Source of the DNA: Amoebophrya sp. A120
Lineage: Eukaryota; Protista; Dinoflagellata
Direction: 5' to 3'
Assembly: GCA_905178155.1 (NCBI GenBank)
Contig: CAJINV010000008.1
Coordinates: forward strand, 2,170,001-2,234,000
DNA length: 64,000 bases
The notes beneath the pieces are model-generated. The model saw only the letters and a program-made list of their open reading frames with translations. It did not search any database and was not told where the DNA came from. Positions 3,964 to 58,400 of this stretch are shown one piece after another (within the stretch, counting starts at the first letter, position 1; each line of letters begins with the position of its first letter). The position numbers were made by a program, and so were the translations under genes.

Positions 3964-6315
3964 ATGTCCGCCGCTGCCGGCGGAAGCGGTGGCAGAAATG
4001 CCACCGCCCGCGGTCGAACCAGCAGAGCTTTACTACAAGCGGCACTGTTGCACTTGACGGACCTGCTGCGCACGCCAGCCGGGCATCAGTTTCCTACGGC
4101 CCGAGCTCTCATGGTGCGTCGCCGCGGCGATGACCTGCCGCTCGCCACCGAAGTCGAAACCGCGCATGAGCAGTTGGAGGAAAGCGGGGAGGCCGGTGCG
4201 AAAGCCGCGCGCACCGCAAACACGGTGGCGGCAGTGTTGAAAATCAAACAGCATTTGAACGAGCTGGCAACCATCACGAAAGCCACCGAAAAACAGGCAG
4301 TGGACATGGCGCACAGAATATGCTCCGTGGTCGCGCATCTACTTAAGCTGCACCCTGCTCAGTATCTCGAGTCAGTACCTACACGTCGGGCTGGAGTTGT
4401 ATGTTTTCTTTGTAGTTTCAAGTACTACGAGCCATACAATTTCTAACTTACTTACGATGAAGGTCGAAATCATGCAGAGATGGAGATCGCGGAAAGAAGG
4501 AGAAACAGTCGCGCCACAGTGGTGGAGCGGCTCCAATTCCCTTGTAAATGGAGTGCGCAGGAGGTGAAGTTGTGGGGGACAAATAGATTCTTACGCAAGC
4601 AGGCTTTGTTCGCTTTTTCATACGGGGCGGACAGCGCTGGAAGTGTTGAGGTGGAGATGGTCGCACAAAGAAACCGGGCTGCAACGGCGCTTGACACAAC
4701 GGTCGCGACGCTGCGTGCGTTCAAAAAAAAAGCAGCACAGCTCGTGGCGACGGCGGAATCCGGGGCAGAACAGACGGTGACGAAGAAGGAGGAGCCCACT
4801 GTACAGGGGCTTCAGCAGTGGAAGCTCCAGGTCCTGCACGATCCTGCTCGCGAGGCCCAGTTCGCCTTCTTTACAGCGAGCAAACCCTACAAACAGGCCG
4901 GGGAGTTGGTCGCCGCCGCAGTGGGAAAGCTGCGGGCCAAGGCGGCGGCCGCAGATCGCGAAGCCTTCGCGGTCCGGGAAGTATGAGAGTGCACAGCTAC
5001 TTCTCCTCTCCCTCATTTGTCGTACACAGCACCGAGTCTACCCGTTGCCGCTTGGCACTGCTTGCGTGACAAGTTGCGGAAGCCGAAATAGCACTGAGAG
5101 TCGGTCGTCGATTTGTCATACAGCAGTTTAATAAGCTGCATGATTACTTACTACAGATACTTTCCAAACAAGCTAACGTTGCTCTGAATGCCATCCAAAT
5201 GAGGGGGTGGGGAAGTTGCGCATACTTATAGGAACAAGCAAGCAGCTATGGAAAGACAGCGGGGCAGCGTACCTAATTATGTTGTGCAATACGTCAATCG
5301 GAAGATGTGATCGTCGTGTGACGAAGATGCCTTGTGCGAGAATAATCATGTATGCGAATACGAATGTGAATTAGAATTTGTGCTCCTAGTACCAGCACTA
5401 GCTATGTAGCTTTTTGTTGAAGAAATGAAATGTTGCGTCGAGATAGAAAAAGCCTATCCTTCCGTCTCTTCAGGAATCCACCCCTTTCTCCGCAACACGG
5501 ACGTTGCGCAAGTCCGGCAGCTTCAGGCGAAGGCGGACGCTTTGTCGCTAAAGGGGAACAAGTATGCCACGGAAGCGGACAAGTTTGCGCTGCTTATCCC
5601 GAAGTACGCACAGGCAGCGGACTGGGTCGGGGCGGAGGCCTATCGTAAGGAAAGATCCCCCCTCCCATATTGAAAACGTATCCGTCTGAAAATTTGTGAT
5701 GCGCATTTGTGACCTCAAATCCTGTCTGTCTTGCAAGAAGGCAAATCCAGAGAGCGCCCCGCATTTTGCAGGCGGTTTGTGATGCTGTTGGGCTTAGGGC
5801 ATACACGTTGGCCATGCTAGGCGCCTACGTCAAAACCTCCCGACTGAGGCTTGACATATGTCTGCAGTCCTCTACTTTAAGACAAATCTGATTTGTGTAC
5901 GGAAATCCAGCATCAGAAACTTCGTTTCGATATGGGGAAGGGGGATTTTTCCTCACGATAAGACCGCACAACGGATTGACCCGACGGTGGTGCTACCACC
6001 CTTCACGTACTATCAAATGTAAAAATGTCTGGGTCTGGAAACTTGTGATGCTGGGTGGCGTCTCATGATGAGGCCACAAGTGCTGGCTCAGCATGACAAG
6101 TTTCTGAGCTTCTAGGTGTTGCCTATTCTGCATGACAAACTGCGTTTCTGCATCACAGAAAAGTGGACCTCTTTGGTAACGTGCGTGACAGATTTCAGAG
6201 TCATGCCAGACAAGCATGACAAACATGCATTCTTCCAGACCCAGACATTTTTGCACTTGATACGTACGCTCTGCCCCCGATCGGCGGGGACCTGCAACTG
6301 CCGGGTGACGAGTGA
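3964..6315 (+). CDS. Multi-exon hypothetical protein, Ala/Lys/Glu-rich; 3' exons split by two introners
   Basis: ORFs 3964-4446, 4480-4986 and 5425-5673. Removing 5641-5960 and 6011-6262 (each plus one TSD) gives ...WVGAE(A/T)AQRIDPTVVLPPFTYALPPIGGDLQLPGDE* ending at TGA 6313-6315. Upstream introns not resolved. Confidence 0.55.
5641..5960. mobile_element. Introner family A (about 320 bp), forward orientation
   Basis: TIR TATCGTAAGGAAAGATCCCCCCTCCCATAT / ATATGGGGAAGGGGGATTTTTCCTCACGATA; TSD AGGCC/AGACC; near-identical reverse complement at 57913-58233. Confidence 0.9.
6011..6262. mobile_element. Introner family B (about 250 bp)
   Basis: TIR TATCAAATGTAAAAATGTCTGGGTCTGGAA / TTCCAGACCCAGACATTTTTGCACTTGATA; perfect TSD CGTAC; removal restores the frame. 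Confidence 0.9.
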
Positions 6316-7813
6316 AGATGCAGCTGCTTGTTTGAAGAGAGATTCGATCTCGAATCTCTCTTCCAGACTGGAAGTACACAAGGCGACACTTCTAGTAGAG
6401 CGACAACTGCGAGTAGATGAACTCATGTTGATTTACGGTCCTCATGTGGTCCGTGTGCAACAAGCAAAGCGTCCGTGGAGAACAGCAGACAATAACTACA
6501 ACAAGATGTCCCGTCGCGTTCGATACTTACGATCTTTGTTTTCACGATTATAGATGTACGCTCCTTGAACTCGAAAAAATAATTTTTTCCGCCGGTCTTG
6601 ACCGGTTCTTAGATTTAGATCGGAGCTGACGAAGATCCTGGATCTTCACGGATCTAGTTTATTATTACACTGGGCGGAAGACCACGTACACGTTGCCCTT
6701 GCCGCAAGCGCATAGTCCTGCACGAGAGTCGGCGGGTCGATCCATCGGCCCAGTGCAATCGATTCGGCCATTGTTTCTGTGTGAATGCTACTTATGCCGA
6801 TTGGTTCTGCGAGTTAAAAATATTGTTCGCGTCACCAAGAGAAGAGGCACGCATAATGTGGTCAAGGCCCGCTTCAGACGTTGTGGCTACCTAGTTGTAA
6901 GTACTAAGTAGCCAGATGTGGTGGAAACGACCTATGAGTCGTTTCTTTCGGTGTGGTCTCACGATAGCTTGATGAAATTCGTTCGGTTTCGAGAATATAA
7001 GAATGTCTAGGTCGGTTGCCGCATTGATTTGAGAGTAAGTACCGTAAAGCGCACATCAGAGAAAAGGCTGCGTCATGTCTTGCTGAACGTCATGAGTAGG
7101 AAGTACCATCATTGTAAATAGAGTAGCTATGACCATCGATGGAAACGCGAAGCGGAAAGCAACTGTCACACTGCCGTTGGTCAAGGAAAAAAGTAGTGCT
7201 GGTTTTCAAGTACTGCCTCCACACCAGACACGACCTTTTTTGGAGGACTTTTGTCCGTGAATAAAGCTGCGCTTGATTTTGACTCGTAGACTCAGAATCC
7301 ATTCTGACAGAAGATTCCAGAACCTGTGGACAAGAAATAAGTAGCAAAGTCCGTCCCTAGCAAGGGAATTCGATGGCACTAGTACCATTTTTGGGGGAGC
7401 ACAAAAGAAATCGTTAGTATCGTAGTCGATGGAGCAGTGCAGAGGCTTTTCTTCTTTGAGTTTTATTTCAAAAAAAATCAAAGTAAGAATTTCTTACAAT
7501 GCTTCTTACTAAGAAAAGCGAGCGCGTGAGTCTGAACGGGATAACGATAAATTGGTTTAGGACTGGATGATTGACTACATCTGCAACAGAGGAGGTGTGC
7601 TTTTAGCTTCTGTAGCCATCCGAAGTATCGGAGAAACAGCATAGGTACGTATCTATGGAAACCGACTGAGGGGGACCTTTTACGGGTGAGTCTCAAGCTG
7701 AGCAAGAACGCTCTTGACTTTTATTGCGTTGATGAAGTAAAAAGTCGCTAAAACGTTTTCTCATCTTAAATCTACGTTGTTTTGTTTTTTCCACCTCGTA
7801 GGCCACTTTCTTT

Positions 7814-10800: not shown

Positions 10801-13800
10801 CGCATTCGGTGATGGTGTCGACATCAGCATGCATCATGAAGACTTAGTTTATTCTTTGTCATTGATTAAGTTATTTCATCTCCATCCCCGTCATGTTGAT
10901 GTTTTCCCACCTGAGACAGCCATAGGAGCCTGTGTGGCACGCAATGCTTTCTATGTCCGTTCTTTCTGGTAACTGGAAGACTCCTGAGGTTCCCTTTTTG
11001 ACGCCCGGCTTTGGATCAGTCTGGCTTATTTTTGAGGATCTAGCTCGTCCCGGCGCTTCTCGTTATGTATGATACATATTTGGTGGAGGTGGATGCGAGA
11101 TCATGATGATGATCGCATTGCACAATGAGAAGCAAGTAGTTGATCTACTTCCCGTACATGATGATGATGTAGTAGGCCAAAAAAAAAAAACTTTGAAATT
11201 CGTAGGAGCTATGATCCTCACAATTTCGTTCGAAGGGAAATATCGTACTATCACTCCCCCTTCTATAACTCCTATTGCTGAGCGGGGGCAGTTAAAATTT
11301 CGCGCCGGGAAAGAAAATCGCCCACGTCGAAAATTTTTTGACACTTTTCAAACTTTGCAAGAACACTCAGAATGCAAATAACCTACTTAGGTTGATCCGC
11401 CTACTAGTATCCACGTCACTTGAGTTCATTGGGGTACAAAGTTCAAAGGTTCACAAATCAGGCTAAGCCGGGCACATTCGTCACGACTGTGCCGGTTATT
11501 TCTGTCACCTCTCTCTTGATCGACTTCATGGATTCATGCTGATTTGCTTGGATCTTGGCGGTGGATCAACTGAGATGTGGGTCATTTGATCCCTATGCCT
11601 ACATTCCCCCACACGGCTAACCAGTGTGCCCCTACATTCCCCCACAAGTGAAGAATGTGGAATTTGGCCCACGGATAGACGCAGAGGACAAAGTAAACTG
11701 GGTCACCACCAAACTCACACTTGAGCCATTTAGCCAACCAAGACCACACCCCAAAGAATAGGCAGAGCGTTGTGAATGCTTACCCCCGAAGCAAACTCAA
11801 CTTCAGAAGCACAAAAACCCCCGAAGCTACTCTGCTAGCCCCTAGAAAGCGGAAATCAACGCGCGATCTACGTTGGAGGAAAACACTCCGAGCACCCTAT
11901 ATCCCACTCCGCAGTCCGGGATAACCTCAATTCTCGCAGGAGAAGGATCAAGCTAGCACAGCAGCCGAATACAGTGCAGCGACTCCATCCTTTTTCTCCG
12001 GTAAGGGTTCGCGAGATAGTGCGAAAAAGCACAGAAGAGGACTTGCCATCGGCTTAGTCAACGCACGGATCAGCTTTGTTCTTGTCCGTTGGAACGTGTG
12101 CGATGTTTTCCATATGCTCTTTTACCTCATGCCATCGCAGAAGAAAGTGCTTAGTCTTCTTCGTAGGCTGGCAAACTGGATTTCGCTACTTCTATCGCGG
12201 ACTTGTAGTCAGTGAATAGAATCCCGGGTAGTTCTTGATTTTCATCAAGCCACTCCAAGAAGCCCTGGCTTTGCGTTAGTTTCAGCGTATCAAGCAAAGC
12301 TATATACTCACTTTCGCAGGTACTGTAAGCCCTCAAGGTTTGACGCTTGGAAGACCAACAGATAGGCATACCACGAAAGTGCAGGATAGAACCACTACTA
12401 CTTCGCAAGGTCACGGAGCAACCAGCGAAATCAGCATCAGAAAACGCAACAAGGTCCGGCAAAGACTTCTTGGAGCCCTGCGCTTCAAGGACTTTGCGAT
12501 AAGTTTCCCGAAACTCAGCTTCACGCTGAGGCGTGTAGCACAACCCCTGGCCCTTGGTTTGCAAGAGATAACGGGCAATCCTCTTGGCTGCCGTAATAAC
12601 GGACGCCGCTGGTTTGTTTTGAGCCCTCGCAACCCGATTTATGGCGAAAACCACATCAGGGCGGCACATCGTTCCGATGTATTGAAGCCCACCGGGGATA
12701 CTCAGGCACGAGCTTCCCTTACCCTTCCTCAAGGTCAGCATACACGCAAGGAGTTGCAAGCGGTCTACCTTCCTGCGTGTCAAACTTCTTGGCAACCAAG
12801 TTTAGCAATAGCTTCCTCTAAATCCAAAGTGAGGCATCGCTTCTCGCGATTGTAAAGCATACGCACACCCAAGATGTCCCTTTCATGTAGTGGACCATGA
12901 ACAATTGGAGGAATCATCAATCTTGCCACTGAATCTGTCAAGAATTCGCGCGCAAGCAGCTACGCGCTCTTGTTGATCTGGGCCAGTGATAAAAAAAACT
13001 ATCATCGACATAGATCGCCAAGGTGAGCTTGCCCCTCTTGAACAGACCAGGCTCTTGCGGTGATCGCTTCCAGCCATCACTGAGCAAATATCTCGAGTAG
13101 CAGTCATACCACTTTCGAGGTGCACACCGCAGGCCGTAGAGAGATTTTAACAATCTAACACGGTCCCCGCCTGGATCAGCACTCCAATGCTGTGGAAGTC
13201 TGACGAAAACTCGATCAGAATCTTCAAGGGTCGATCTGATAAAAGCGTTGGAAGTGTCAAAGTCCTCAACAAATTTCCCCGATGCCGCAGCATCTACAAG
13301 CAAGGAACGGGTAGCAGCGTGCGAGACAGTGGGAGAAAAGATCTCAGCTTTCATCACTTTGGTTTGCCTGTTACCAAGCGCAACCAAGCGAGCTTTGTAC
13401 TTTCCGCACCTCTTCCGGGTGTATATCACCACCGCAGGAACTATTTCATCCTGGTCAGTGAACTCACCATCTTCAAGCGGTCGCCAGCACTTAAGCACTT
13501 CCAGCTGCGTACGCTCTAGCGTATCAGCTTCCAACCACTTGGCGGCATCTGGCCCCTCAAATGCCTCTTTCCTTGTAACTTGTATGGTCCAACAAACTGC
13601 GTCACCATCCTTGGTTCTGGACTTTTCTGAAACCTGAATAAAAGGACTGAGCCAAATCCCAGTCGAGAATTGCCCCCGCACCATTTCCAGCTGCAGCCGC
13701 TTCCGGATTTTCATCCTTAGACGGGCCCCCAATGGGCCTAACAATATCCGAAGCGGTTTTGTCCTGCTTGGATTTCCGTCCAGGCTTTCGCCAATGTGGA

Positions 13801-16800
13801 CACTTGTCGCGAGTAAGACCTTTCGGGCGCCCGCGCCTGTTTCTCACCTTTATGAGAACTCCACCCTTCTGACGCCATTTGAATGGGTTGAGCTCGTCAT
13901 CGATAAGATCAGTGCAGTCGGGGCCTTTTACTGAAGGTCCTGCGGGTTGTTATGCTTGTTGGTCTTTTGGGCCATCTCCGGCGCCCTGCTGATCAGGCAG
14001 GTCCTTTTGACCAGGAGATTTTGGCGAACCATCGCCAGCCGTCTCCGGTGGTAGCAGCTCTTGTTGCTGCTTAGCATCGTCAGCGGCTTTGTCCAGCTTC
14101 CGACGCTTTGGCGCTGGCTCGTCGTCTTTCGAAGCCCCCACAGAAACTCCCTCTAGCCTCTCTACGACTCCATCCAACGCAGATCGAAGGGCTAGGCGCC
14201 TCCCAACTGCCTCGGCTGGGTCAAGATCAGCAGGAGATCGCAAATCTGGCGACCCTTCTAACGACTTGCGCAGCGTTGTCACATCCGGCACGAGAGTATC
14301 CTCATCGAACTTTGCGGATTTTGACTCGATCGCACAAAATTTCTGCCCATCCCGGCAATTATCATTCTCGTGAAAGACACCGACCAGATGCGAGGAGCTC
14401 TCACGGATATAGCCGAGAGAAACACCTTTCTAATACCTGTCCGCCAGTTTTGGAACCTTCTGCGGATCGTCGTGGGCATGCGTTTTCACGTAGGCCACGC
14501 ATCCGAAACGCCTGAAGTATTTGCATTCAGCGGCCCGCTGAAACTTCTTGTAGTAAGGAGTTAGGGCATTGGTCTTGCGCTGCAGCCTGTTCTTGATGTG
14601 AGCGACGTAGCGCGCACACCAATCCCAAAGCCGAGGATCTACCCCTTGAAGGTTAGCCCGAAGACCATCCCCAAGAGCCCTATGCCACCGCTCAGCGTTC
14701 CCGTTGGTTTGCGGCTCCCGGATGATGCTGTGGCCAGCAACAGCACCGAGCTCCCTGCGAGCTGCTTTCCAAGGACCATTCATCCCTTTCAGGACTGGCT
14801 CATTGTCGCAGCGCGAGGCTTTTGGCTTGCCTACCTGAGTACAAAACTTCTTCAATTCTTCACCACGCTCATCCTTGGACTTGATGCCGAAAGGCTCCAG
14901 CCAATCAGTACAACTGTCTCGGATGGTGATGCAGATCGTACTTCCATCCATGCTAGGCGGTAGCCCGCCGGAGAAGAAGTCCGTCCCGACCTGATCCATC
15001 CAATTTTCATGGAGGTACGCGACCGGTCGCTTCTTCCGGTGCGAGTGGCTCCCGTAACTCTTGCTGAGCGCGCACGCAGGACAATGCACCTTGATCCCCT
15101 GAACTCCGAAATGTCCCATGCGTTGATGTAATCGCAGCGCAGAACAGCCGGAATTCGTATTGGAAATCAAATTTGCGATAGCATCGCCATCCATCAGGTA
15201 AAACCCGACACAAGGCAGCCGCTTCACAGTATTGGCCTTATGCTTGTACCCGCTGAAATCTTTCAACCATCTCGCATCCTTCGCATGGTAGTAGCTCCCA
15301 TTCTCCTCCTGGGCGAAAGTCTCCACGGAGAGCAAACACACAGTCAGAGAAGGACGATAGAGCCCAGCGCGAGTTCCGAGGTTGTTAGGCTTAAGAAATC
15401 CGTATTGGGCCTGTTCCTTGCGCGGTCCGTCAGCAGTGTTCAGGGTGACCGTTTCGCCCGTGAAACTTTCAAACAAGTCAGGATCTGGGAACATGTTGTG
15501 ACTTGCGCCACTGTCCACAATCAGCCGCAGCTTCTGCTGCAGCTTCTATCTTATGCGACTTCCTGCCCATCACCTTATTGACCACGTGGACGCCTGCACC
15601 ACTAGGGGCTTCAGCTCCACAGACTTGACTTCGCTTGAACGTCGTGTGCGCGGCCAGGCCAGCAGCAACACGCGGACAAGACGAATCAAGGAAACAATGA
15701 CCAACCCGGGGCGAGCGTTTCCGCCTACGCCAGGCCAGCACATTACGAGAAAACCTACGACCAGAAACCCGAAGCGGAATCTTCAAGGTTTTCGCCCTGA
15801 ACTCGACATCAGTATCTCTAGGTCTACAACACATTACGGGCTGCGTAACATCACCACGCCCCCACAGAGACCACGCGACCAGCAAAGCCAGAAACGTGAA
15901 GCACACTGCTGCGGGCACAATCGTCACGAAGTCAAGACCCTTCAAAGCTGTCAAATTTGTCAAAGGCTGAGCCACGTAACCCGCTAACCCGGGCACGTTC
16001 GTCACAGCTGAAGCATTGGCAATTCTCAAACTGGTGAAAACATCTTCCCAGAATGGACCAACAGCTACTACGAGCTGGAAGACAGCGAACACACAAAGGA
16101 AAAACCAGTAGAAACGCGCCCAACCCGTGGGACTTTTCAAACGTCCACTCTCTTCCTTCTTGTTCACATTCATACTTTCGTCAGTGTTGTTGCCAGTAGT
16201 GTTTTCCTTACTTAGCAGGCTCACAGACATCAGCGGACTCGGAAGAAGACAAATCATCGTCGTCATTCTTTCCCCAGCCGAAGTCTTTGGAGGATCCGAC
16301 GCCGACGAAGTGAGTCTCTTCACCGTCATCCTCACCTTCTTCCTGCTTCTTCTTATTCTTCTTGTTATTCTTCTTTCCGTTACCCTTGGACGCCGGACGC
16401 AAATGCGGGTGCTTGACCCAGCATTTTTCAACCGGATGACCAGGGCGACGGCAGTGCGAGCAACGGACGGGGGTAGGCTTGCCGCCTTTCTTTTTGACCT
16501 CCACCTTTAACGCCTTGGCCTGGTTCTGCAGGGATTTAATCTGCTGAGCCTGGGCAGCGTTCGCAATAGGCTCTTCCTTCTTTCCATTCCCCGCACGCAG
16601 CACGCTCGTACTCCCGAAGGACATCGATCAGCGACTGAACATCGGTGGACTGCTTGACGTTAGCCAAGATGGAGGAAGTAACCGGAGCGAAGGAGGGCAG
16701 CACACCCATCAAGATGGCTCCGATAGTCAGCTCATCAGTGGTGACTTTCGATTCCAATTGCTCACGAATAACTTTGGTTTTCTTAGCGATGAAAGACTCA

Positions 16801-43400: not shown

Positions 43401-46400
43401 GAACACTCGCACACACTTCCACGCGCTTGCTCCACTGAGCTCGTTAGCAGCAGCAGTGTCGTGAATTCTCTCCGTTGCAAGTAAGCAAGCAAGTGCCGCA
43501 AGTCTCTGGCTGCGTTACATCCTGGAGGCCCAATTCATCCAACTTCATCGCCTTCATATGGATCAAGCGGGCTCTGATTCATGCGAACCAATGGACTCAG
43601 CCCGTAAGCGGCAAGGCCATTGCTTCGAGGTAAAACATGAACAAAATCACAGGGATCCAAGTACAGCCAGGAGAGCAATCCGAACCAAATCGACGGACTC
43701 AGCCCGTAAGCGGCAAGGCCATCGATTCGGGCGAAACTACTAAAGCGATCAAGTAAGGAGCAGAGCAATACGAACTCGACATCGGGGCCGAATCAATGGA
43801 CTCAGCCCGTAAGCGGCAAGCCCATTGATTTGATCACTTCTATCGTATTCCGGCGACTTGATCTAGCTAGTTCAGGGCGTTCAGAGCTGTCACTTCGTTC
43901 GGGAATCAATGGACTTAGCCCGTAAGCGGCAAGCCCACTGATTTGATCATTTGGGAACAGGCATCATGTGGGGCGATCGTGTTGCGTGTGTGCGGGATCG
44001 ATTTCCATGACCAACAAAGAGAAAAGATCGCAGAAGGGAAAGCAGAAAGGATTTTAGAGGGGGAAACTCGACGGCTGTTTTGGAAGAGGAAACAAATTAG
44101 CCGAGAACTTTAGAAGCGAGCCAAAACTGGAAGGAAGTTCATTGTAGAAGGGAAAAGCAAAAGGGTCGGGGCGGGGCATCATGGGAAGCGTTCGCTGTGT
44201 GTCCGCATCTCTGGGGTGGGGCAGTTGTGCGGCCGGATGTCGTCAGTAGGGTGTTGCATATATTCGGGCGCTTGGGCGAGGAGGGTCGGGCGAGACTCAT
44301 CTCCACACGGTGGAAGGAGCTCGATTCGGCTTTGCCCGCCATCTGGGTGTTTCTTTTGTCTTTGGGCTGCTTAGGTTTCCCGCCTTTGGGCGACTTTATT
44401 TTGTTGGGCAACCTGCTCCGGAATCGGAAGCGTGAACAAATCGAAACACCGGAAAAGTAGCGAAGTTTTAGAAGCCAAGGCGGAGCGGGTGTCTCCCGCC
44501 TGGGCGTGCACCTAAAGGGCGGCGGTGGTCGATCGTGCTGCTGTGGGCCCCGTGTTCCGGCTACTCCGGATCGCAATCGGTGGAGGGCGGGACATGCACA
44601 GGCGACAGGCGCTATCCAGTCAACCAGGCAAGTTTTGCAATCTTCCAAGGCCAGACATATTTGCACTTGATAGTGGCGGGGCCTCACTACAACGACACGA
44701 GTGATGCATTGGTCATCTGTGGTGCCCACCTCTATGCCCCTGCGTCGGCTCTGAACGACGTACAAAGCCGACTCAATGTGGCGCGGTATGTGGAAACTCA
44801 AATTCCTGCTGCCCTGATGCACGGCGCGCAGTCGAGTAGTCTCTACGACACATATGCAGAACTTCCGTTGCAATATCGATACGGCAGGACCACAGAGTGG
44901 CAAGAGCACGAGCAAGAGAACCAGCAAGCAGGGGGAGGGGGAGGGGGAGGGCAACATGGAGGGCGTGTGCGAAATCTACTTAGCAATCTGGAATCAAATT
45001 GTTGGAATCACGTTGAAAGTGAATTCAAGTTAATGCAATCAAGTTAATGAAATCAAGTTAGCAATGAAATCAGGTTAGTGGGTAATAGAGTCAGGCTGTG
45101 CGTACTAACTTGCGCGCCTCATCTATCCACTGCAAAGATGTCTGGTTCTGGACGGTTGCAACATTTGTCATGCAAGTTGTCTGCCACGACGACGACCCAC
45201 AGCCTCTGCATGTGAGCGCTGCATCTTTTTCGATATTCATTTATATAGGTTGGTAAGAGAGGGAATCAGACCGAACAGATGGAATCAGACTAGTGCATGG
45301 AATCAGACTAGATGCGGAATCAGTTTAGTGGAATCAGAATAGTGAATAGAATCAAGACACTTGATGCAGACTTATGCGCTGAATCTGCATCCCCATCCGT
45401 CGTCGAATGAATGTGGTCGGTCATTGCGTTCTCTGTCGTATGCATTGGGCATGTTGATGATGCCCCCCTGCAGGCATCGCTGTGGCCCATCGCTTTCTCG
45501 TCACTTCATCTGTTGGCAGTGCGTGTTCGCTGCTGCGCTTCTATTTCAGGCGGGACTTGGCTTGCGTGCTCTGTATGTCTGCGCATCAGGCCACATCTAG
45601 ACGGAGGGGGGGCAAGGTTTTCATAGTATATCTCGCATAGAAATTGTTTTCGGCGATCCGTGGTGGTCAGCCCGGGCCAACTTCTATCACAGGCTCCGGA
45701 TCATTGTCGGCGCACTCGCTTCCTCATTCTCGCGACGGCACGACTGGCAGACCGCGCGCGTGTCATGGTTGGATGACGGGGGCGGGCCCTAGCAGGTACT
45801 ACATGCAGATGCCTTGTTTTTGGTTTCAGATGCCATTGCTTTCTTTTTTGGTCAGGCGTCCGGGCCCGGGCCATGTCAGCCGGTAAAGCTTTGGCAATAT
45901 TCCGGCAATTTTTTTCAAATGCCTAGGGGCGCCGCCGGCTTTCCGTCGTTATGTGTGCCGGGTCCTTTGGCCGTGGGTGCCGGTTTTGCCCCCGCCCCCG
46001 GCCGTGGTCTTTCCCAGTTTCTGGTCGTGCTCGTGGGCGCCTTGGCCGTGGCCAGTTATTTTCGGGCTGTTCGATGTTGGGTTTCGTGTATTTCGGGGCG
46101 TGGTGGTGTGAGGCGTGATGGTTCGGCTGCCCGTCGTTTTTGTTTTGTGGTTGAAAACCTCTCTCATATTCCGACCCGCAAGCCCTGCGCTCGTGTCGCC
46201 TCGTCATGCAATTCTGTCGGATCTGTCCTGAAAGGTCCGACAGAATTGCATGGCGGGACGAAATGGTCGCCATCTTCGTTTTACTCAAAACAGCCCGAAA
46301 CCGGCATGAACTGCAGCAAAAGCTGCAACTCATGCTGCAACTCATCGTGCAATTTTCGGCCGAACACCGTCCCGACCATTTTTGAAAAGCTGCAATTGGC

Positions 46401-49400
46401 GCTGCAGTTGGCCGTGCAATTTTCACGCAATTTCAGGTCCAGGTCCGAAAACAAAGCAAATGGCTTGGTTTTCGTACCCCCCCCTGAAATTGCAGCTTTT
46501 TTGCGCACTCAATTGCAGCGTCAGTTGCAGCTTTCCGAGAGTGGTGTGGGACAGTGTTCGGGACACTTTTTGCACAGTGAGTTGCGCACTTTTTGCACAC
46601 AAGTTGCACACTCTCCTGGGATATTGTCAAAAGTTGGGGGGCGAAAGTGATGCTGCATGTGGCGCGCCCGCGCCTGTTTCCTGGGGTTTCTTTCAGAAGC
46701 GTGCCGCCCATAGCTGGTTGGAAAAATGCGCGCAGGGTGGTGATGTCGCGCATACCCCCGATTGCCCCCCGCCGGTCTCCGGGGGTTGTCTGCAAAAGAT
46801 GTCTCCGCCCCAGGCGCAAGGCCCGGCCGCAAGGCGGTGTTGCGATGAAGATGCCCGCCTGCGCCGGATGGGTGTGTTGTGAGTGCCCGCGGGGCGCGTC
46901 GATCTGCGCAGCGGGGGGGCCTCTTTAGTCTATGTCTAGGCCCGCCAGGGTGCTGGTGTGCCTGTGTGTTGGCTCCTCACCTCTAGAAAGACGCCTGGGC
47001 CGCGTGAAAAATAAAACCCACCAGGGAAGGCAACAGCACTCCTACGCAGGCGCGGCCATAAAAACTGCAGCGCCTGCCTTGGCGCAAAAAAAACATGGCA
47101 AATCCCGACGGTATGCTGCGAATTTCTTGAGGGATTAGAACAGCGCTGAAGATCACCTATTTCGTGTCTACACAGCGTGGCTGATCTGCTCGGCGATACA
47201 GAAAAAATAAAGCTACGCCCGAGCTAGAGATACACCTACGGCGTGCCTCTCGTGCGGGCCCGAGCAAAATGCTGTCGGTTGGGCCCTCCCGCCGCCGCCT
47301 GCGCTCTTCTCCCTACGGGATCGGGCCCCAGTGGGGACAAAATAAAAAAAATGATGTGCGTGTTTTTTTAAAAGGCCGCGGCCGTTTTTTTTCTTTGGAT
47401 TTTTCAAAGAAAAAAAAAACTTGCGCGCCTCTTACATGGCGCGCGCGAAAGGCCCCGGCCTCTTCAGTGTGTGTCCAGGGGATTGGCGTGACTTTTGGGC
47501 TTGCGCCGTCTTGGTTGCCGATAGGACGCAAACCCTCGGGAGCCGCCGGCCTTTGGGGTGGTGTCTGCCGTTCGCATCGGGGGAATATTTGTGGCCCTTG
47601 ACCGCTGGCGCGGAGTGAGAGGGACGAACGCAAGGACGTTTTTGTCGTAAAAGCAGCACCTCCCGGCGCCGGAGGCTTCGAGGTGCACGCAGATCATGAC
47701 TCCGAAATCTGTGGGCATCTATCTTCGAAGCCCGCGGCGACGGGGCGCGCTTTTTTTACGACAAAAAATTCCACAATTTACGACAAAAAATCTAAAAAAA
47801 TTTAAAAAAATCAAAAAAAATTGCGTCGCAAGAAAAACCTTAGGGGTCTGCGCTACCTTGGGGAATTCTGCCATTTTTCGTCCCGCCCTTGTCATTTTTC
47901 TGACACGGACTTGACATGGATTCCGGATTATTTGTCGTAAGATTTCGCCGTCAAGATTCCGTTCTGAAAAATGTGGGTGGGACATTGTGTCTTGTCTTCG
48001 GTGGAGCCTGATGATGAAGGTCTTCTTGGTGTCTTGCAAGAACCTCGCGTGTGTCCTCCCAGAGGCCGGGGCCCGATCGGCGGGAGGGTTGGTTTCTCAC
48101 TTGCGTGGCGACACACCCGCGGCCCACCTCGGAGCCACGGAAGGGGCCGGCGGTTGGTCTTGGGCGCGCCTACCATTTCCTCATTCCGTTTTTTGCCCCT
48201 GATATTCCTCGGACGCCGGCGTGGTGCATGGCCGCGACATAGTTGGCCGATGGGCGTGCGCGCCTTCGCTTTTGCCTCACCCCCTTTTCGTTTTTGCCAA
48301 TTTTTTTTTTTCCGCTTTTTTCCAAACTTAAAAATCACGGCTATTATTTTTTATTTTATGGGCCCACTGGGGCCCGATCCCGTTGACTTCTCCCTCCGGG
48401 CGTCGTTCCAGCGTCCTCCGCTCAGTAGCCCGCGCCTACCTGTGCAGGCGAGCAGCGTCTTCATCTAGCTACTCCAGTAGTCCCCACGTCCCACCACCGC
48501 GGCCGACGCAGCAAGGCAAGCGCTTCTGGGGTTTCAAGCTCGTAGTGTAGGGCTCAGATTTTGACTTCTTCGAACCATGGGAGTGCCGCGGGATTCTTCG
48601 AGGGGAGTGTGGGCAAACCATGGGAGTGTGGGAAAGCCATCCGATCTCCTGGGAAAACCATGGGAGGTGGGAAAGCCATGGGATTGGCGTGGGAATTCTT
48701 CGAACAGGGCGGGGAGCGTTTTAGCCCCCGCGGCCGCAGCAAAACCATAGGCGGGCGCGCGGATTCGTCCTTCCGGGTGGTTCCGCGGGGCCGGTGCTAG
48801 CTGGGGCGACTAAAGCAGCAAAGCCAGCTCGCTGCTTTTTGGTATGGGTCTGGTTTCTTTTCTCTCGGACAATCCTCCAGAGTCAGGAGCGCTATCCCTT
48901 CCAGCTTCTGGGGACACATGGTGGCGACGGGTGTCATGAGCAGCATACATCACCCGAAAAGAGCCCGGCCATCAAGCACTCCTGTTGTCCCGTCCGAAAG
49001 GATGACGAGGGGAACTGCGGCCGCACTAAATTGATCGGCTACATTGGGTGCCCGAGTAGCGTGATGGACTATGAGCCGGCTGCGAAAGCTTTTCTTGAGC
49101 TTTGCCGCACGCGGTACGGCGCGCGCGGACCCTTCCCGGAGCATTGGGGCTGATGTCTGGGATGGCACCAAGTCCGTGAGTGAGAAAATGTTGGGCCGGC
49201 TCTACACGCCCGCAAAGGGGCTGGGGTTTTTACGGAGAGCGAAGGCTCGGAGGCCGAAGGCGAGAAGGAGGGGAGGCAGCCTGCTCCACCGCCTCGCGTA
49301 CTTAGATAGACTCGGGGGAGCGACCGCGCTTGGTGCGCGACCTGTGTCATCGTGTGAGAAATACGACACCAGCGAAAGTGCCAGGGAGGAAGAGGATTTC

Positions 49401-52400
49401 AGAGGGCATGGAGGTGCTTGCCATACTGTGCGGGCAAATGCTTACGCAGCCAGCTCGCGACGGACCTCGGGCGCTGATGGACAGGCTCAAGGCAAAAGCC
49501 GAGCGCCATCGTCGGGATATCGCCACGAACATCGTCGACCGCCTGGCCGACGGCCGGGGGGGTTCGTTTCTATTGGACTTCGTCGGGCAGCTGGTACGGA
49601 GATGGTTCCTGTTTGTTCAAGAATCAGCCTGCCCGGAGACGCTGGGGAGTTCCTGTCTTTTCACGAAGTAGCTCCCAGACGATGCATAGGGCGGGCCACT
49701 TTTTGACTTTTCATTCATTGCAGTGAGTAGGTATGTAGCCCGCGCGCGTCGTTTCTTGATATTCTGAGGAAAGGGAACAGGTGTTGGCTGTCCAGCAGGC
49801 CCCTTGGCATTCCTTCCAGCAGCCACCCAGAATGAAGCATCGAGCGTGGTTGGAAAGACGACCAAGGCGGAAAGACCAGCGAGCGGCTTTCTGCAGATGT
49901 GTCGCAGCGAGGGTCTCGGTGTCCTGGGGAAAAACGCCCCCGCCCCAGAATCAATCCGCTCGCTGCGAGGGGGTCCGCGGCGCCAGTGGCGCTGGGGTGA
50001 TAGTTGTGCCGACTACGTGACGATGATGATGGTGATGCGTGAAGGTTTGTAGTCCGCATCCCAGGACGAGCACGAAGCGCGCCTCGTCGCGTTTCGGCCC
50101 CTATAGTGCTGTAATAAACAGGGGAAGAGGTGGATGGCTTTGGTGTGCGGCTGTCCTTGCGAACCAGCAGGCACAGCACTGACTTACTTTTCTCCGCGGG
50201 GCAGCTGAGTGGGGCAGCGGGGTTCCTGGGCCATGAGCTAGCAAGCGGGGGCGTGCTACGATCGGCTCTGCCACCGTTTGCCATTGCCATCAGATCGACC
50301 ACCTTTGCAGGGAATCGCAAATGAGGGAGTCCTGCGGTCGGCTCGTTCCTCTTTGGGCCTCCCGCCGGCGAAATGCAAGAACAGGAGCCCTCCTGTCGGC
50401 TCTTCTTAGTATTGCAGTTCCCGCGCGCGTATTTGTGAGCATGTCCTTGTCTGGAAGATCGACTGGTTGGGGTTTGAGCTTGCTCTGCAGCGCGTCCTTC
50501 CATGTCGGCGCACGAAGCGACGTCGTATGTAGTGAGGTCGCGCGCGTTGGTTCTGTCCTGGCGCTTTTTTTGCCCGTCAGACAGCAAAACGGCCGGCAGT
50601 TATCAAGCGGCCGGAAGTGTTTTTTGACATAAAAGGTCACCAATTATCAAGCCGCCGGGGCTTTGCCATCAAACAAGCACGGGCCAACTCTATCGATTAC
50701 CGCTTGACAAAACGACGCAAGGGAGCCGGCAAGCAAGGGGGCCGGCAAAAGGGGGGCCCCTCTGAGGCGCCCACCGCCTTGGTTTCTGGTGGCTTGGGGC
50801 GCTCAAAAAGGGGCGCCGACAAAAGTCCAATAATACAACAACCGCGAACCCGCATGCTATTGGCACCATTTTGGCCCACTTTTCGAGGTCGCAAAGCCGG
50901 CCACCAAAGTCGGGCATCTGTAAGGCGGGGAGCGGGCCAAACGCTGCGACTTTTCAACAAAAAAAACCAAAAAACGCGAACGCCGCCAAAAGCCGAAAGC
51001 CAATCCGCATGTTGTGGCCCCCTTTAGGGGGCCAATAGTGCCGGCCCCGGCGGAGGCCCTAGGGCGGCCATAGCGTGTGGGAAAGCGTTGCTTCTCTGGA
51101 GGCAGCAGGGGCGCGGCTTTTCCACAAAAAAAACCAACAAACGCAAATGCCGCCAAAAGCAGCAGGCTTTCAATCCGCCTGCTAGGGGCCCGATTTGGGG
51201 CGCCCAAGGGGCCGACCCTGGCGGGGACCCGAGCGGGGCCACGGCATGCGGGGAAGGCCTTCGGGCTTTGCAGACAGGAAGCGGGCGACTTGTAGCCGTG
51301 ATATCTACCGCCCCCGACACCATGCGGGGCAACGCTTTGGAGGGCGGCAGTAAAAAAAGCCACTGCGGCCTTACTATCTACCCCCGCGGGCGCGGCTATT
51401 ATTGGTGTCTATTATCTATGGCCCTCAGTCGCACTCGCAGCGCGTCGCGCGGAATCCCCTTGATGCATATAGTCCCGCGCCGATTTCTTTTCCCTCGTGC
51501 CGATTTCTCTTCCCTGGCTGCGCGTCAAAAAATGGCTGCGCTGCGCAAGCTTTCAGCTGCCAGACATATTTGTAGTGGTGGTCGGGGATGTTGGTGGAGC
51601 TCCACCGCCAAAGTTTTCAGGAGGCAGGAAAGCGCGCGGAGGAGTATCCGATCCATCTACCAGGTCGCCGGGCTACGTACGTTGGTGTGGGCGCCGATTT
51701 CAGCTGCAGCGGCACCATAGTGCTACGTAGCGCATACCCACCGAACTCAACCTCGAGAGTATTTGGCTCTGTTGTTGGTTTCTCGTGCGCCAGGGCCTCC
51801 CTTCTGTCGTAGTATAGAAATCAATGCGGGAGTATACGTGGCCCGCTCGGCTTTGTTTTTCTTTTTGTGCCGAGTTCGGGCGCTGCAGGTTACTTCCACA
51901 GCGGGAGTGGGTTCCGCGGAAGGTAGTAGCTAGACCACCTGACTTATCTAGTTAGCCCAGCCCTTAAGGCAGAACGAAGACGGGGAGCAGCGCGGGCGTT
52001 TGCTATCCATTCGAGTGCGTAGCTAGCATGGCGCTCCAGCGACTTTGAGGACTTTGGCGCAATATAATTCAATGCACTTACTGACGTCACAGGTTGCGCC
52101 CGAGCTCGGCGCGCTATCGCTCTGCGACTTGCAATACGGTGGGCCGGCGATTGGCGTCATGGATGCGCGCGCGCAAGAAGGCCTCGGTGGCCGCGGCGTT
52201 AAGCACATAACGCGCTATGTGGGCAAGCGGGCATTTGGGCAGTGGGCGGGGCTGCCATCTTATCTTGGCTAAAAACGTACCCACCCCAGCCGCGGCATCA
52301 CAATCATGCAGAGGAAGTGCCAAGTGAAGGCCCAGACACCTGGCGCGGGCCTGTCCGAGAGAGACACAATTCCCGCTCTCGTTTTTGTATGTGTGCGTGT

Positions 52401-55400
52401 AGTTGTAGAAACCCTTACTCTTTTAAGCGCCAGCATTGTCATCAGCACAGGCGGATGGGTATGGGCTCGCGATCTGGATGCATGCAGGCTCACTTGTCAT
52501 GCAGATATCTGAGCTACGAAATGAGGTGGCTAGGTTTTTGTTTAAGATTGATACGTGCTCCACGCATGACATGGGACAGTGAGCAACGCGATTGGGTTTG
52601 GATGGTTGCGAGCAATTTGGCGACAGCGACAGCGCGATCTGCAAACGTGATTCCGCAAACTTGATTTCAAATCTAAACGTGATCCCATAAACGTGATCCG
52701 ACGATAAACGTGATTCCATTAACTTGATTCCAAACGCAAACGTGATTTCAGATTTTGGCTAACTTGATATGGGAGATTTCCGAACACAAGTGCACGCATA
52801 CCGATGTTTCTGCTGCCTCGTGTGGCAACGAGGCGGCCGGGTTTAACTGGTGGCGGTAGGCACAGAAAAGGACCCATCCCCATCCAATTTGTGATTGCAA
52901 AGCATGCATATTCCATTAAATCCTGTGTCTGTGATGCAAAAAATGGATGGGGATCGTGGATTTTGTTCTGTGGATAGGGATGTCGGATTTCCTGGAGGGC
53001 GCCGGCAGTACGTCAGTCGCCTTCGTCTTTTCAACCGCGGTGGTGATGCAACTTTATTCAAGCGGCTGAACAACGGGACCGTGTGGCTGGATCCGCCCAT
53101 TACCGTGGACGAAGAAGATCCGAGCAACTACGGCGACATCGGCAGAGAGCTGTGGGCCCTGCTGGACGGCGGAACGCTGGTCGCGGGGAAAGACTATGTC
53201 CAGTTCGGGACTGTGGCCACTGGGGAGGAGGGCGGCACTTCGATCTTCCTGGACGGCGCGGGCATCGCGACAAAGCAGCCAGTGCGCCGCCTCTATGTGG
53301 CCGCACCGTTTGACCGTGTCCCCACTCCCGGTTCCGCTTACTCTTGCAATAACGATCCAATCCACATTTGTGGAGCCCTGCTGTACGCTCCTGCGTGGAG
53401 CCTGGATGAGTCGACAAGCTATCTACAGCACGCCTGGCACCTCCCGCCCCAGTCGTTCCGCCTTGTCCCGCGGACGATGCTCGAGGCCTCGGCTTCGTCC
53501 CTATTGAATCCCGGGGATGCCAGCGAACGTAGTCCTCTGAATCGAAAGCTGGGCCACGTGGATAGTTGCCAAGGATCCTTAGTCACGGCCACTACCAGTC
53601 TGGGGCAGTGGTGGGAAGTGAGCTTCAAGGACGGGCAACCCCGGCCCATCATGGGCTTCGTTGCGTTCAAGCAGACCCAGAGCAACTACGATAACAACAT
53701 TGACGACGCGCCGATCTACCTCAATGGCACACTAAGAAGTGCCATTCGCAATATGCCCACCCTGCCTCATTGGAACGCCCGAGGTGTTCCAGACTTCCAC
53801 GACGCGGGCACGTGGGTGTCCATTGGCCAGGACGCTTCAAAAATTCGCATATCCGACCCGGCTACCGCGAGGGCTAGCGGACTGAACGGCATCACGCTCT
53901 GTGGGTTTTGGTTGTTCCAAAGCTGTGTGGGGGCAACGTCTTCGGACGCCAACAACTATCGGCTCGAGAGACTAGCAGACCAGGGCGACCCGGCGGTGCG
54001 TCAGAGTTTTGCCTGCACAGAAGAACTCGGGCGGGCTTTCTCAGAGTATGACTACCTACCAGGGGTGAATGGGGAGGACGGAACTCTACCGGGGAACTGG
54101 CCCTGGAGGGAGTGCGTCCAGTGGTGCGCGCAGGAGCCGAAGTGCGGGGGCGTCGACTACGAGTTGGATGGCTGCTCCTACTCCCCAGCTCGCGGAATGT
54201 GCCGTCCCCGTAGAAGCGCCAGCACGCGCGCAGCGCTGGATCCCACCGCGGATGTCGCGCGGGACGCACGGGTTGCCCTGGTCATGACGGACGGCTGCCG
54301 TAGGAGTCTCATGCCCGCACGTCCGCTCCGCTTCGTCAGTAAGACCGACTTGACCACGTTTTTGCTGAACAATAAAGGTGGCTATCACCTTACCAGCACA
54401 CCCCGCATCGACCGCTCTGCCAACGCGGAGTACGGCTCGTGCGCGGCGGCCAGTTCGGGCCTGTATGACGCTTCGGGCCCAGACAACCCCGACTACTCCT
54501 CGCGGGGCTTCTGCAATCGATACAGCCACGGAGAAACCAGCACCGATATCCTGCAGCTCGAGGTGCAGTCCACGGACACCGCGGGCAACGATGTCAGTGG
54601 TATGTACGTCGCGGGGGTGGTATCAACTGCAAATATGTCTTGCTCGTCTAGAAGGGTTGAACTTGTGATGCTGTCTTTGGATGCTAAACCTTAGAAATTA
54701 ATGTTGCATGATCAGCAAGAGGAGACCAGTACTAGTTTGTTCCACGCGGAGAGGCCGTTTGTCATGCGGAATAGGCAGCAGAAAGTCCGGAAAAATTATC
54801 TGTGAAGATGCTGGCTCATGCATTACAGGCATCATGGTTGATGCAGAATATGTATGACAAACGCAAACCTGGCAATCTCCCAGACCCAGACATATTAATT
54901 TGCAATGCATAGTTGGTCCTGCAGATGCGGGCGGGGGACACCAACAGGGGAGTGTCGCGCGTGTACGTGCAGTACCTACCAAAGGGCAATCCGCAAATGG
55001 GCGTCTATGTCCCGGGATGCACGCGCAGCGATCCGAGGGGCTCGGCCGTGTGTTTGCACGGCTGGCGGGAGGTGGACAAAGGCGCCTTCCTGGAAACCGG
55101 GATGGACTGCCGCTCCGGAGAGGAGCAGTCGGCCCGTGTCCTCTACTTCGGGGAGCCCGTGTTGGCCAGCTCGATTCGGATCATTGGGAAGAGCCCGGGC
55201 CTGTCACCCTGCGACACCGCAAATGTCGCCTACCGCGCGGAGCTGATTCTTCGCGCCCACGACGGCGTGCGGCAGGTGGGGCGGCGCTTGGAAGCGGGAG
55301 ACGGAAACCTGAAGATACCGGGGGACTTGTCCGTCTTCCCACCTGACTACGACGCTTGTCTGCAGTGGTGCGTGGACCATCCGACCTGCGTGGCGATCTC

Positions 55401-58400
55401 GTTTTACGAACATTACAAGTGTCAGCCCTTCAAGGCTCTGGGGAAGTACCAGGGGCTGGAGACACGTTTCAGCAGCGTAGTCACCTTCGTCTCGCACAAG
55501 TATCGGGTCAAGGAGCACGGCATGCGGCTCTTCTACAATCTGGGGACTCCAGGGTACCCCATGTGCCCTCCGGAGCTGCTATCCCACAGAGAGCTAGAAT
55601 ATTATCTCACATTTGTTCGTAAAAATAAATGTGAACTCACAGTTGTAGTTGAAAAATTTCCCATAGGGTATCCGTGTGTTTGCTGCTGCATATCCAAATA
55701 GTATGCTAGTGTGCTAGCTCCTTTCTGTGCGATAGCCGCTTGGTTTGCCAATAGCGGACGAGGATCATTGCGAAGAAGCGATACATATCCTCACAAAAAA
55801 CGTCCCCACCGAGATTTGTATCAGTAGCTGGAACACCTACACCAACACTTGTAATGCGCATCCCCATGAGAGGGAGAGGGAGAGGTATCTCTCTGGTCGT
55901 GCTTCGTTTGGCATTCTTTGTAATCGCTGTTGTAACTAAAACTACAGGAACAGGATAAGCAGTGACCCGCACCTTGCTGTCCGTGCTAACCTGCACTACG
56001 ATGCTCACAGATAGAAACTGTTGATGCGTCACTTCCAACACTTCTGGCTCTGTGTTGCGAAATTCCTATCGTGACTATGTCGAGGGGGCGGCTTTCCACA
56101 GGATAGTACACTTTATCCAATACCTCCGGGTGGAGCAGCGGAAAGGTCAAGCCCGTCGCTATCAACAGGAAAAATCCGCCCTCCCCATATCAAAGTGGCA
56201 ATGAATCTGTGTTGCGGGATTTGTCTACACAAATCAGCTTTGTCTTTCAGTAGAGGACTGCAGGCAGATGCAGAGCCTAGAAGGGGCAGGCTAGACGTGG
56301 GCGCTCAGCTGCATGGCAGACGTCTCGTCTGCCCTGTAGTTGGCGCAAAAGCATTACCAATCGCCTGCGTCAAGCGGCCGACGCTCTGGCTTTGCTCTCC
56401 TGCAAGACAAACCAACCTGACTTGTGGCCACAAATCAGCATCACAAATTTTCAAAAGGATGCCTGTTCGATATGGGGAGGGGGGATTTTTCCTCACAATA
56501 GTCGCTCCGATGTGCTGGGTCACTTCGCTTACCAGCAGCCGCTCTCTTCCAACCCGGAAGGACCGGGGCCCAGCGCCTCGTGCAGGGACGCAGCAGGGGG
56601 CTGGAGTGAAGTTCCGTTCGGTTGCAGCGTGTCCAGAAAACCAGTGAATGTCGGGCGGCCACACTTCCGGGGTGGCACCCACACGGGCGGCGCACCCACT
56701 AATGAGATGTTTCTGGATCCGCGCTTATCAAAATGAAAAATCCCCCCTCCCCATACTAAAACGGAGACTTGTGTAGCATGATTGGTGACCACAAATCATG
56801 TCGTCACGCTAGAAGGCAAAAGATGCGGACTGTTGTGCTGGCTGGCGTGGGAACGCCTTGCATCTTCAGCATAAAAACAGGAGGCACCTGGAAGTGGGAA
56901 ACAGCATGACAAACTGCCTGCAATTCAGGCCGCAACTGCGTCTCGTGGCCTTCTAGGAATACAAGTCGATTTGTATCCGCAAATCCAGCATCAGAAATTT
57001 CCTTTCCGATATGGGGAGGGGGGATTTTTCCTCGCAATAGCGCTGCCACCGCCTGCCTTATCAGGTGCTGTGTGTAAAGCGCGTGTACGTTGATTACTCC
57101 CTGTACCGAGTGCGAACCCTATCAAAAGGAAAAATGCCCCTACCCCATATTGAAACGGCGATTTGTGTAGGATGATTTGTGACAACAAGTCATGTTGTCA
57201 TGCTAGAAGGCAAAAGAAGCGGACTGCAGTGCTGGGTGGCGTAGGGAAGCTTTGCGTCCTCAGCATGACACCAGGAAGCAACTGGAATAAATGGGAAACA
57301 GCTTGACAAACCGCCTGCAATTAAGGCCGCACCTGCGTCTCTTGGCCTTCTAGCAATACAAGCCGTACGCAAATGCAGCATCTAAGGACTGACCCCTAGC
57401 AATACAAGCCGTATTGGTTGAGGACTGACCCCTTCGTTCTAAGTGCCGTCAGCCATGGTATCCGCAAATGCAGCATCACAAACGTCTTTTTCAATATGGG
57501 TCGGGGGAAAAATTTTTCTTCGCAATAAACCAAAATAACCGGGGAGCCCGTCCGTTGTTACCGTGGTGCGGAGCGTGAGCAGCGCATCAGCAAGATTGAG
57601 TGCAAGGAGGTCGGCTTGGGCATGGCGTTGACGGCGCCTCTATTCTTGCCGTACTTGCGCGACCCATACCAAGGCGACCCACACGGTCTCGGTGGGCGAG
57701 AGCATTTTAAATGGGGAGCTGCAATGGAAGAGGGGGACTCAACTTCTGCCGGTTGCCAAACCGGGAGCTCAGGATGGTGCAGTGTCCCCGCCGGATGCTC
57801 ATTGTCGGACACCAGTGGCCACGTCCACTGGAACAGTGCTAAGTTCGACGAGGCCTGTTGTGCAGTGGGGTACAATTTGATTTGCGGCACTCGGCAAACA
57901 CCACCGCTGCCCTATCAAGAGGAAAAATTCCCCCTCCCCATATCGAAACGAAGTTTCTGATGCTGGATTTCCGTACACAAATCAGATTTGTCCTGCAGTA
58001 GAGGACTGCGGGCATATGTCAAGCCTCGGTCGAGAGGTTTTGACGTAGGCGCCTAGCATGGCAAACGTGTATGCTCTAAGCCCAACAGCATCACAAACCG
58101 CCTGCAAAATGCAGGGGGCTCTCTGGACTTGCCTTCTTGCAAGACAGACAAGATTTGAGGTCACAAATGTGCATCACAAATTTTCAGACGGATGCGTTTT
58201 CAATATGGGGAGGGGGAATTTTTCTTTACGATATGCCCCCGCCCCGGCGGATCCATCCCAAGTTCGAGCGCGATCGATTGTTTTTTACCCGCACCTATCA
58301 AATGTAAAAATGTCTGGGTCTGGAAAGATGCAACTTGTGATGCTGCATTTGGATTCCAGAAAAATCTGTATTGCAGGAGTACCAAAAGGAATGTAATTTT

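Follow-up and report, generated by a model that had tools for sequence, protein, structure and literature searches.

Introners in both orientations within genes of Amoebophrya sp. A120 and a cut register that appears to follow the transcript

How can one and the same transposon-like element interrupt genes in both orientations and be missing from the products of both? The question is raised by a stretch of 64,000 nucleotides (nt) of contig CAJINV010000008.1 of the dinoflagellate Amoebophrya sp. A120 (hereafter, the window), in which an initial annotation recognized, at 5641-5960 and 57913-58233, two near-identical reverse complements of an introner, each in a + strand gene whose frame is restored by its removal. 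Our analysis suggests, with a probability of roughly 0.6, that such elements are small non-coding transposons that insert into exons in either direction and are removed by a divergent U2-type spliceosome lacking U1. The class itself is already known: these are the published non-canonical introner elements of A120 (Farhat et al., 2021; PMC7789003, cited here from passages of the text and supplement), with which they share the genome, as exact protein matches show, as well as ends of the form TAT + 7 nt + AAA, 5-bp direct repeats, non-canonical borders, a hairpin and thousands of copies, and the direct repeat of 3-5 nt reported at the borders of the A120 introners was likewise found here.

Exon queries returned matches to proteins named Amoebophrya sp. 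A120 at NCBI, and exact peptides mapped back to the window place the two copies in + strand genes, one of them the giant gene that the initial annotation had claimed:

3964..6315, + strand: host gene of the 5641 copy; NCBI model P0004, 333 amino acids (aa), function not assigned
22172..60611, + strand: giant host gene of the 57913 copy; 2,297 codons and 22 non-canonical introns, joined under one removal rule

The P0004 gene combines four non-canonical introns with one GT-AG intron (5269-5473), so that both types coexist in one gene. The NCBI models P0003 and P0001 overlap and each cover part of the single giant gene, which has internal repeats and weak PAN domain matches; P0001 ends at 57816, and the RNA-like contigs described below, together with a paralog on another contig (P0002), carry the frame on to 60611. 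The A120 gene models were derived from transcript alignments because standard gene predictors failed (Farhat et al., 2021). Among 21 annotated junctions, 20 correspond to removal of the element plus 5 nt and one to a GT-AG intron. As proposed, the frame is restored at both copies: removal of 325 nt at 5641 reproduces P0004, and removal of 326 nt at 57913 agrees with P0002 and with the length of an RNA-like contig. The paralog spans the elements at 56726, 57120, 57913 and 58296, with implied introns of 319, 413, 326 and 267 nt, and its alignment to the giant gene continues over the 24581 junction.

The relationship between the two copies is as described: they are 92.5% identical as reverse complements by BLAST and 92.8% by global alignment, and their interiors, taken 45 nt off each end, are 94% alike on opposite strands versus 55% on the same strand (shuffled control, n = 100: mean 49%, maximum 55%). 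Both start with TATC and end with GATA, and each is flanked by a 5-bp duplication. The element consensus comprises inverted ends TAT-N7-AAA ... TTT-N7-ATA and a 5-bp target duplication; a scan for such ends found 38 candidate pairs in the window versus 2, 5 and 5 in three shuffles. Family A and its subfamily A2 have eight copies in the 64 kb, and the duplication is present at all eight (four perfect, four with one mismatch). Traits of miniature inverted-repeat transposable elements (MITEs) are found, namely terminal inverted repeats (TIRs), a duplication of fixed length, small size and lack of coding capacity; no transposase family was detected among 40 window proteins and open reading frames (ORFs), and Rfam has no match within the window. 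The mirrored 60-aa ORFs at 5709-5891 (+) and 57982-58164 (-) do exist; they follow trivially from the reverse complementarity of the two copies and were rejected as genes.

Orientation was assigned by interior alignment. For family A this upholds the earlier assignment of 24581 as forward and of 23789, 56160 and 57913 as reverse, and removes 56726 and 57120 from the forward copies: these two share only their ends with family A, and their interiors score alike both ways against the six core copies (score differences of -19 to +19, versus 85-333 among core copies). Family B, too, occurs both ways, with 54621, 58296 and 29193 in one orientation and 59325 and 6011 in the other. The elements are:

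5641..5960, + (forward): family A introner; duplication AGGCC/AGACC; predicted intron 5640-5964, 325 nt; junction reproduces P0004
57913..58233, - (reverse): family A introner; perfect duplication TGCCC/TGCCC; predicted intron 57912-58237, 326 nt; RNA-like contig and paralog P0002
24581..24901, + (forward): family A introner in the giant gene; intron of 326 nt; model P0003 and paralog; 78% identical to the reverse complement of 57913
23789..24105, - (reverse): family A introner in the giant gene; intron of 322 nt; model P0003 only
56160..56500, - (reverse): family A introner in the giant gene; intron of 346 nt; model P0001 and RNA-like contig
63583..63904, + (forward): family A introner; perfect duplication CACGG; no host gene assigned
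56726..57039, no strand assigned: subfamily A2, ends in common with A; intron of 319 nt; P0002 and RNA-like contig sums
57120..57527, no strand assigned: subfamily A2, oriented as 56726, with an internal insert; intron of 413 nt; P0002 and RNA-like contig sums
54621..54911, + (orientation 1): family B introner; intron of 296 nt; skipped directly in an RNA-like contig
58296..58557, + (orientation 1): family B introner; intron of 267 nt
59325..59587, - (orientation 2): family B introner in the giant gene; intron of 268 nt; 74.5% identical to the reverse complement of 58296
6011..6262, - (orientation 2): family B introner in the host gene of 5641; intron of 257 nt

The element and one copy of the duplication are absent from RNA-like contigs as well as from the gene models. 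Runs X1-X4, like all the others not on record as RNA, are guessed to be RNA (they contain 0.51-0.53 of words); X5 and X6 contain 0.79-0.84, and X5 is DNA-like. The comparison with RNA-like contigs covers four of ten runs over 52800-64000, where record 1 of X1 matches the window without difference at 52981-54617, 54914-55577, 56501-56720 and 57528-57907. The first skip is directly visible, one piece ending at 54617 and the next resuming at 54914, with 296 nt missing around the family B element at 54621. A gap of 92 nt equals the predicted sum if 55580, 55786 and 56160 each lose the element plus 5 nt, a gap of 75 nt equals that for 56726 and 57120, and it takes the removal of both 57913 and 58296 for the last 185 nt of the record to finish at 58685, a place at which the DNA-like run also breaks. 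In record 2 of X1, a 109-nt gap is that predicted for removal of 58858, 59325, 59652 and 60006. Altogether 13 introns are covered and all four gaps match the prediction exactly; such sums fix the total removed, not individual intron lengths. Thus, within the RNA-like contigs of one gene, the reverse family A copies 56160 and 57913 are missing, and so are family B copies in both orientations. The raw RNA runs X8 and X9 yielded 99 and 3 partial reads, all on a repeat, and gave no strand or splicing rate.

Loss of the element plus 5 nt is also the exact empty-site state, and a DNA mechanism would naturally be blind to orientation; with X1 only guessed to be RNA, the same contigs could reflect excision from DNA, either by a transposase or in the manner of the internal eliminated sequences of ciliates, or could be allele DNA without the insertions. 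We regard this as very improbable. In the DNA-like run X5 a single 3.4-kb piece retains three elements, without difference and at single-copy depth, the pieces of X1 show no difference from the window over 3,337 nt and yet lack 13 elements, some of an age at which their duplications have decayed, and the cut register described below follows the direction of the gene. Contigs drop rare variants, and low-level DNA excision would escape detection by them. Over the elements, the summed contig depth of X5 reaches 2.4e5 versus about 45 on unique DNA, a figure that is not a copy number.

Forward copies of family A are probably removed too, to judge from gene models built on transcripts, from homology to the paralog and from the restored frames. 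Alternatively, only some orientations or families might be truly spliced, the forward A copies being artefacts of the gene models or poorly spliced, a view to which the support at 5641 and 24581 from sources other than RNA data lends itself. Against it stand the exact element + 5 junctions that transcript-based models give at both positions, the paralog aligned over 24581 and the absence of family B from RNA-like contigs in both orientations. Further evidence on both sides comes from a metagenome-contig scan with the end motif, which led to 59 loci of one assembly (L001-L059) with families A, A2 and B, in copies up to 95% identical to the window's (5641). Its 253 elements were collected by an end-motif scanner. 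A perfect 5-bp duplication, which the scanner favours, accompanies 185 of the 253. When the element plus 5 nt is removed, 116 of the 253 lie inside frames of 250 or more codons, versus 12 when it is retained; the alternative in-phase removals (+2 and +8) give 100 and 111, and the six other phases 37-47.

The orientation tally in this second assembly takes in the 93 elements, from 29 loci, whose host strand is clear (160 were dropped), a selection that is made from sequence and presumes the removal rule; forward/reverse counts are 6/15 for A, 3/2 for A2 and 14/7 for B, and 46 elements are unclassified. The deficit of forward A copies (p 0.078) favours one-way splicing to some extent, and it may represent a possible orientation bias in genes of the kind seen in Polarella classes. 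Among copies more than 90% identical to 5641, those in L045 and L058 point forward and those in L014, L049 and L038 point in reverse. The six forward A copies are enclosed by frames, 275-1,164 codons long, that would become shorter with the copy retained, which speaks against one-way splicing. The longest of these frames, a CHD/SNF2-type helicase of 1,164 codons (L002, 427-3325), contains family A in both orientations and a family B copy. Its SNF2 domain is interrupted by the reverse A copy, with profile position 225 on one side and 228 on the other, and 84 of 150 homologs bridge this reverse junction, whereas none bridges the forward one in the same frame. In a Pfam search with 68 exon pieces, this SNF2 domain was the one domain interrupted by a family A copy, and no domain was interrupted by a forward copy; a homolog search with an L058 exon gave no match. 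Taken together, we consider it improbable that forward copies escape splicing.

If removal is indifferent to orientation, where are the cuts made? A listing of every placement compatible with the annotated peptides shows that all 20 element junctions conform to one register, N-TA(T)...A(T)A-NNNN, with a single intron base ahead of TA(T) and four intron bases behind A(T)A. The terminal TAT and ATA, initially taken for the intron termini, are therefore internal to the intron. At 24212 and 44979 this register is the only possible placement, and an identical cut is indicated by the X1 piece starting at 52981, a site with a decayed duplication. The mirrored register, with the cut after base 1 of the duplication, is excluded at one forward copy (5641) and one reverse copy (23789); hence the cut follows the transcript and not the element. 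In the text passages of Farhat et al. (2021) the border position is described as unknown and variable, in contrast to the fixed register and two-way use seen here. More than 60% of Amoebophrya introns lack GT-AG ends; GT/GC-AG is impossible at all 20 annotated element junctions in any equivalent placement and occurs in none of the 26 window introns in register. In these 26, position +1 is free (C9 G7 A6 T4), U at +2 and A at +3 are invariant, the last dinucleotide takes 12 forms, A is invariant at -7 and -5, and the next exon starts with a purine in 12. The combination of a G[T/C/A] donor with an AG acceptor, supplied by the element end or by the duplication, is not found: G stands at +1 in 7 of the 26 and terminal AG in one, never together.

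What, then, marks the transcript strand? The initial annotation proposed that removal depends on the symmetric stem of the inverted ends and the terminal TAT/ATA, rather than on a strand-specific branch point or polypyrimidine tract. The part concerning strand-specific signals stands: at the 3' ends of 119 elements sense and antisense do not differ in pyrimidine fraction over the final 40 nt (0.524 versus 0.526), in occurrence of CTRAY (27 versus 28 of 119) or in any of 626 5-mers after correction, and both orientations are tolerated. The proposed dependence on an RNA stem gains no support from the counts of G-U and A-C pairs presented below or from annotated intron 4318, which has no significant terminal duplex (z -0.8) and keeps the register. 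Folding does predict paired ends for both 5641 and 57913 (z -4.6 and -7.9), and terminal stems fall below z -3 in 25 of 26 introns. The ratio of G-U to A-C pairs in family A flips with the orientation of the element, from 11:1 in forward to 7:28 in reverse copies. In the second assembly the base profiles of the two arms, 5' and 3', agree across 16 positions (positions 1-3 being fixed by the scanner), and the composition of the target duplication is flat, with no sequence preference (93 elements).

Several transcript-side asymmetries seen in the 26 window introns were discarded, as they did not hold in the 93 elements of the second assembly and arm variants follow the orientation of the element. 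Peculiar to the window were the absence of T from base 4 of the duplication, 3' CAATA without 5' TATTG, a mismatched stem position 7 and an A-C excess at stem positions 4-7 (p 0.0009). The symmetry of the elements stems from their transposon origin, and symmetric end repeats provide the 3' arm with a U-run and a candidate branch A either way. With signals available inside the arms in either orientation, the contrast drawn with classical spliceosomal introns is not clean, and the findings are compatible with a spliceosomal route.

Probably, removal proceeds by cuts at fixed distances from the mirror-image ends of the element, their direction being set by transcription. N-U-A at the 5' end could function as a GUA donor of relaxed sequence, with U at +2 and A at +3. 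At the 3' end the cut would be placed 4 nt from AUA, whose invariant A at -7 or -5 is the putative branch point, and pairing of the two arms may bring the ends together in place of U1. Fixed spacing between branch point and acceptor occurs in some protists. With the same motif in both arms, either orientation would offer the same signals, so that insertions would be neutralised whatever their direction, frame or target. For A120, U2, U4, U5, U6 and 83 of 89 proteins are reported as present and U1 as undetected; in Table S4 the predominant classes are NT-NN in 9 of 9 for A120 and TT-NN in 9 of 9 for A25, and the A25 repeats start with TTA (PMC7789003, text and supplement passages). The occurrence of U+2/A+3 in two unrelated repeat sets (A120 and A25), along with retention of U2, U4, U5 and U6, favours a divergent spliceosome.

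An orientation-independent removal from RNA by a separate, non-spliceosomal machine, whether a structure-guided nuclease with a ligase or a Euglena-type system, with cuts offset from the terminal helix by 1 nt on the 5' side and 4 nt on the 3' side, is in our judgement less likely. It would account for the free junction bases on both sides, the strong terminal stems in both orientations and the coexistence of canonical and non-canonical introns in one gene, and the architecture resembles the Euglena code N3CDG...CH'GN5-6|R, ascribed by the authors to a distinct machinery (PMC12501133, in the portions cited). It is at odds with U+2/A+3 in A120 and A25, which match the spliceosomal donor, with the lack of detectable selection on RNA pairing and with the introns of 7.8 and 15.1 kb and the one intron with a decayed stem, all of which keep the register. 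Tentatively, one may also envisage a second, sequence-blind splicing code, in which a non-spliceosomal or radically rebuilt machine recognises paired transposon ends and cuts 1 nt ahead of them and 4 nt behind them along the transcript, convergent with the Euglena system; if so, every element with TAT...ATA ends would be erased from the mRNA, at lengths of up to 15 kb and whatever its orientation, frame or target.

Several points weigh against removal by a divergent U2-type spliceosome in both orientations. The forward A copies are supported by published models and homology, not by direct RNA, and the RNA nature of the runs carrying the spliced form is a guess. No G is required at +1 and no AG at the 3' end, and transposon ends, too, would be expected to keep TAT/ATA invariant, on which the scanner moreover selected in the second assembly. 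The predicted stem engages the donor bases and the candidate branch A in pairs, which would have to be unwound. On the sense strand there is no excess of G-U over A-C (101 versus 120 in 109 elements, 10 having been dropped for poor ungapped pairing) and no energy advantage (59 versus 59 of 119 elements).

Two-way introners have precedents, so that, for a class already published from this genome, the system can be considered known. Those of Aureococcus and Micromonas occur in both orientations (Huff et al., 2016, as cited in PMC10228655 and in the Roy preprint), and several classes of Polarella glacialis act either way, as in Aureococcus (bioRxiv 10.1101/2020.10.14.339549). In the portions of these sources cited, such introners share with the A120 elements an origin from DNA transposons, target duplication and two-way, often biased, intron creation, but have G[T/C/A] donors and AG acceptors of their own or recruit them; the A120 elements do neither and accept any target. 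The non-conventional introns of Euglena (PMC12501133; PMC11282704, in part) similarly have an inverted terminal motif at fixed, unequal distances from the two cuts, direct repeats that blur the border and a MITE-like origin; the code N1-TAT...ATA-N4 of A120 differs from the Euglena code, and the purine preference of the next exon is lacking. The introns of Fritillaria borealis are likewise MITE-derived, with TIRs and target site duplications, and are reportedly removed by an adapted U2 spliceosome; they prefer AG-AC/AG-AT ends and an exonic TAC (PMC11282704, in the cited portions), whereas the junction bases of A120 are free. An orientation analysis is absent from the text and supplement passages of Farhat et al. 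(2021), whose figures may show part of the register and of the two-way use. We found no literature report on orientation or a fixed register of Amoebophrya introners in a coverage that mostly leaves out subscription journals; PMC13149111 does not mention Amoebophrya, introners or Euglena.

Other features of the window concern the introners and their surroundings. A subterminal motif is common to different families, with TGTGATGC near the 5' end and GCATCAC/GCATGAC 53-67 nt from the 3' end (copies 5641-5960, 6011-6262, 58296-58557, 59325-59587 and 59652-59962), for which a role as transposase site or as symmetric branch-like signal is conceivable. Introner ends also surround nested repeats of 15.1, 7.8 and 2.8 kb (29576-44676, 44980-52773 and 25897-28660), annotated as single introns in the same register; the intron analysis of PMC7789003, in the passages cited, is limited to 1 kb. 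The remaining features are:

29577..44672, no strand assigned: nested repeats, 15 kb in all, between family B-type ends; a single annotated intron of 15,101 nt that keeps to the register
32849..33175: run of N (assembly gap) inside the 15-kb intron, whose length is therefore approximate
36978..37379: copia-type reverse transcriptase piece in the nested repeats of the 15-kb intron
11355..17595, - strand: copia-type long terminal repeat (LTR) retrotransposon with 249-bp LTRs 96% identical, and gag, pol and reverse transcriptase matches in separate ORFs
17983..18172, 18239..18725, 27764..28402 and 30094..30414: tandem arrays with units of 17, 18, 97 and 82 bp

The present analysis adds a testable code for the borders of this class of introns. 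A register that follows the transcript, together with indifference to orientation, yields the concrete code N1-TAT...ATA-N4, which predicts the positions of lariat branches or circle junctions and mends gene models, such as those of the giant gene, which had been split and truncated. Introner families were published as strain-specific (PMC7789003, in the passages cited); should the second assembly represent another species, the families would not be strain-specific, contrary to that account. Furthermore, the proposed mode of removal would explain the mass invasion of exons by these transposons, given that direction, frame and target would be immaterial.

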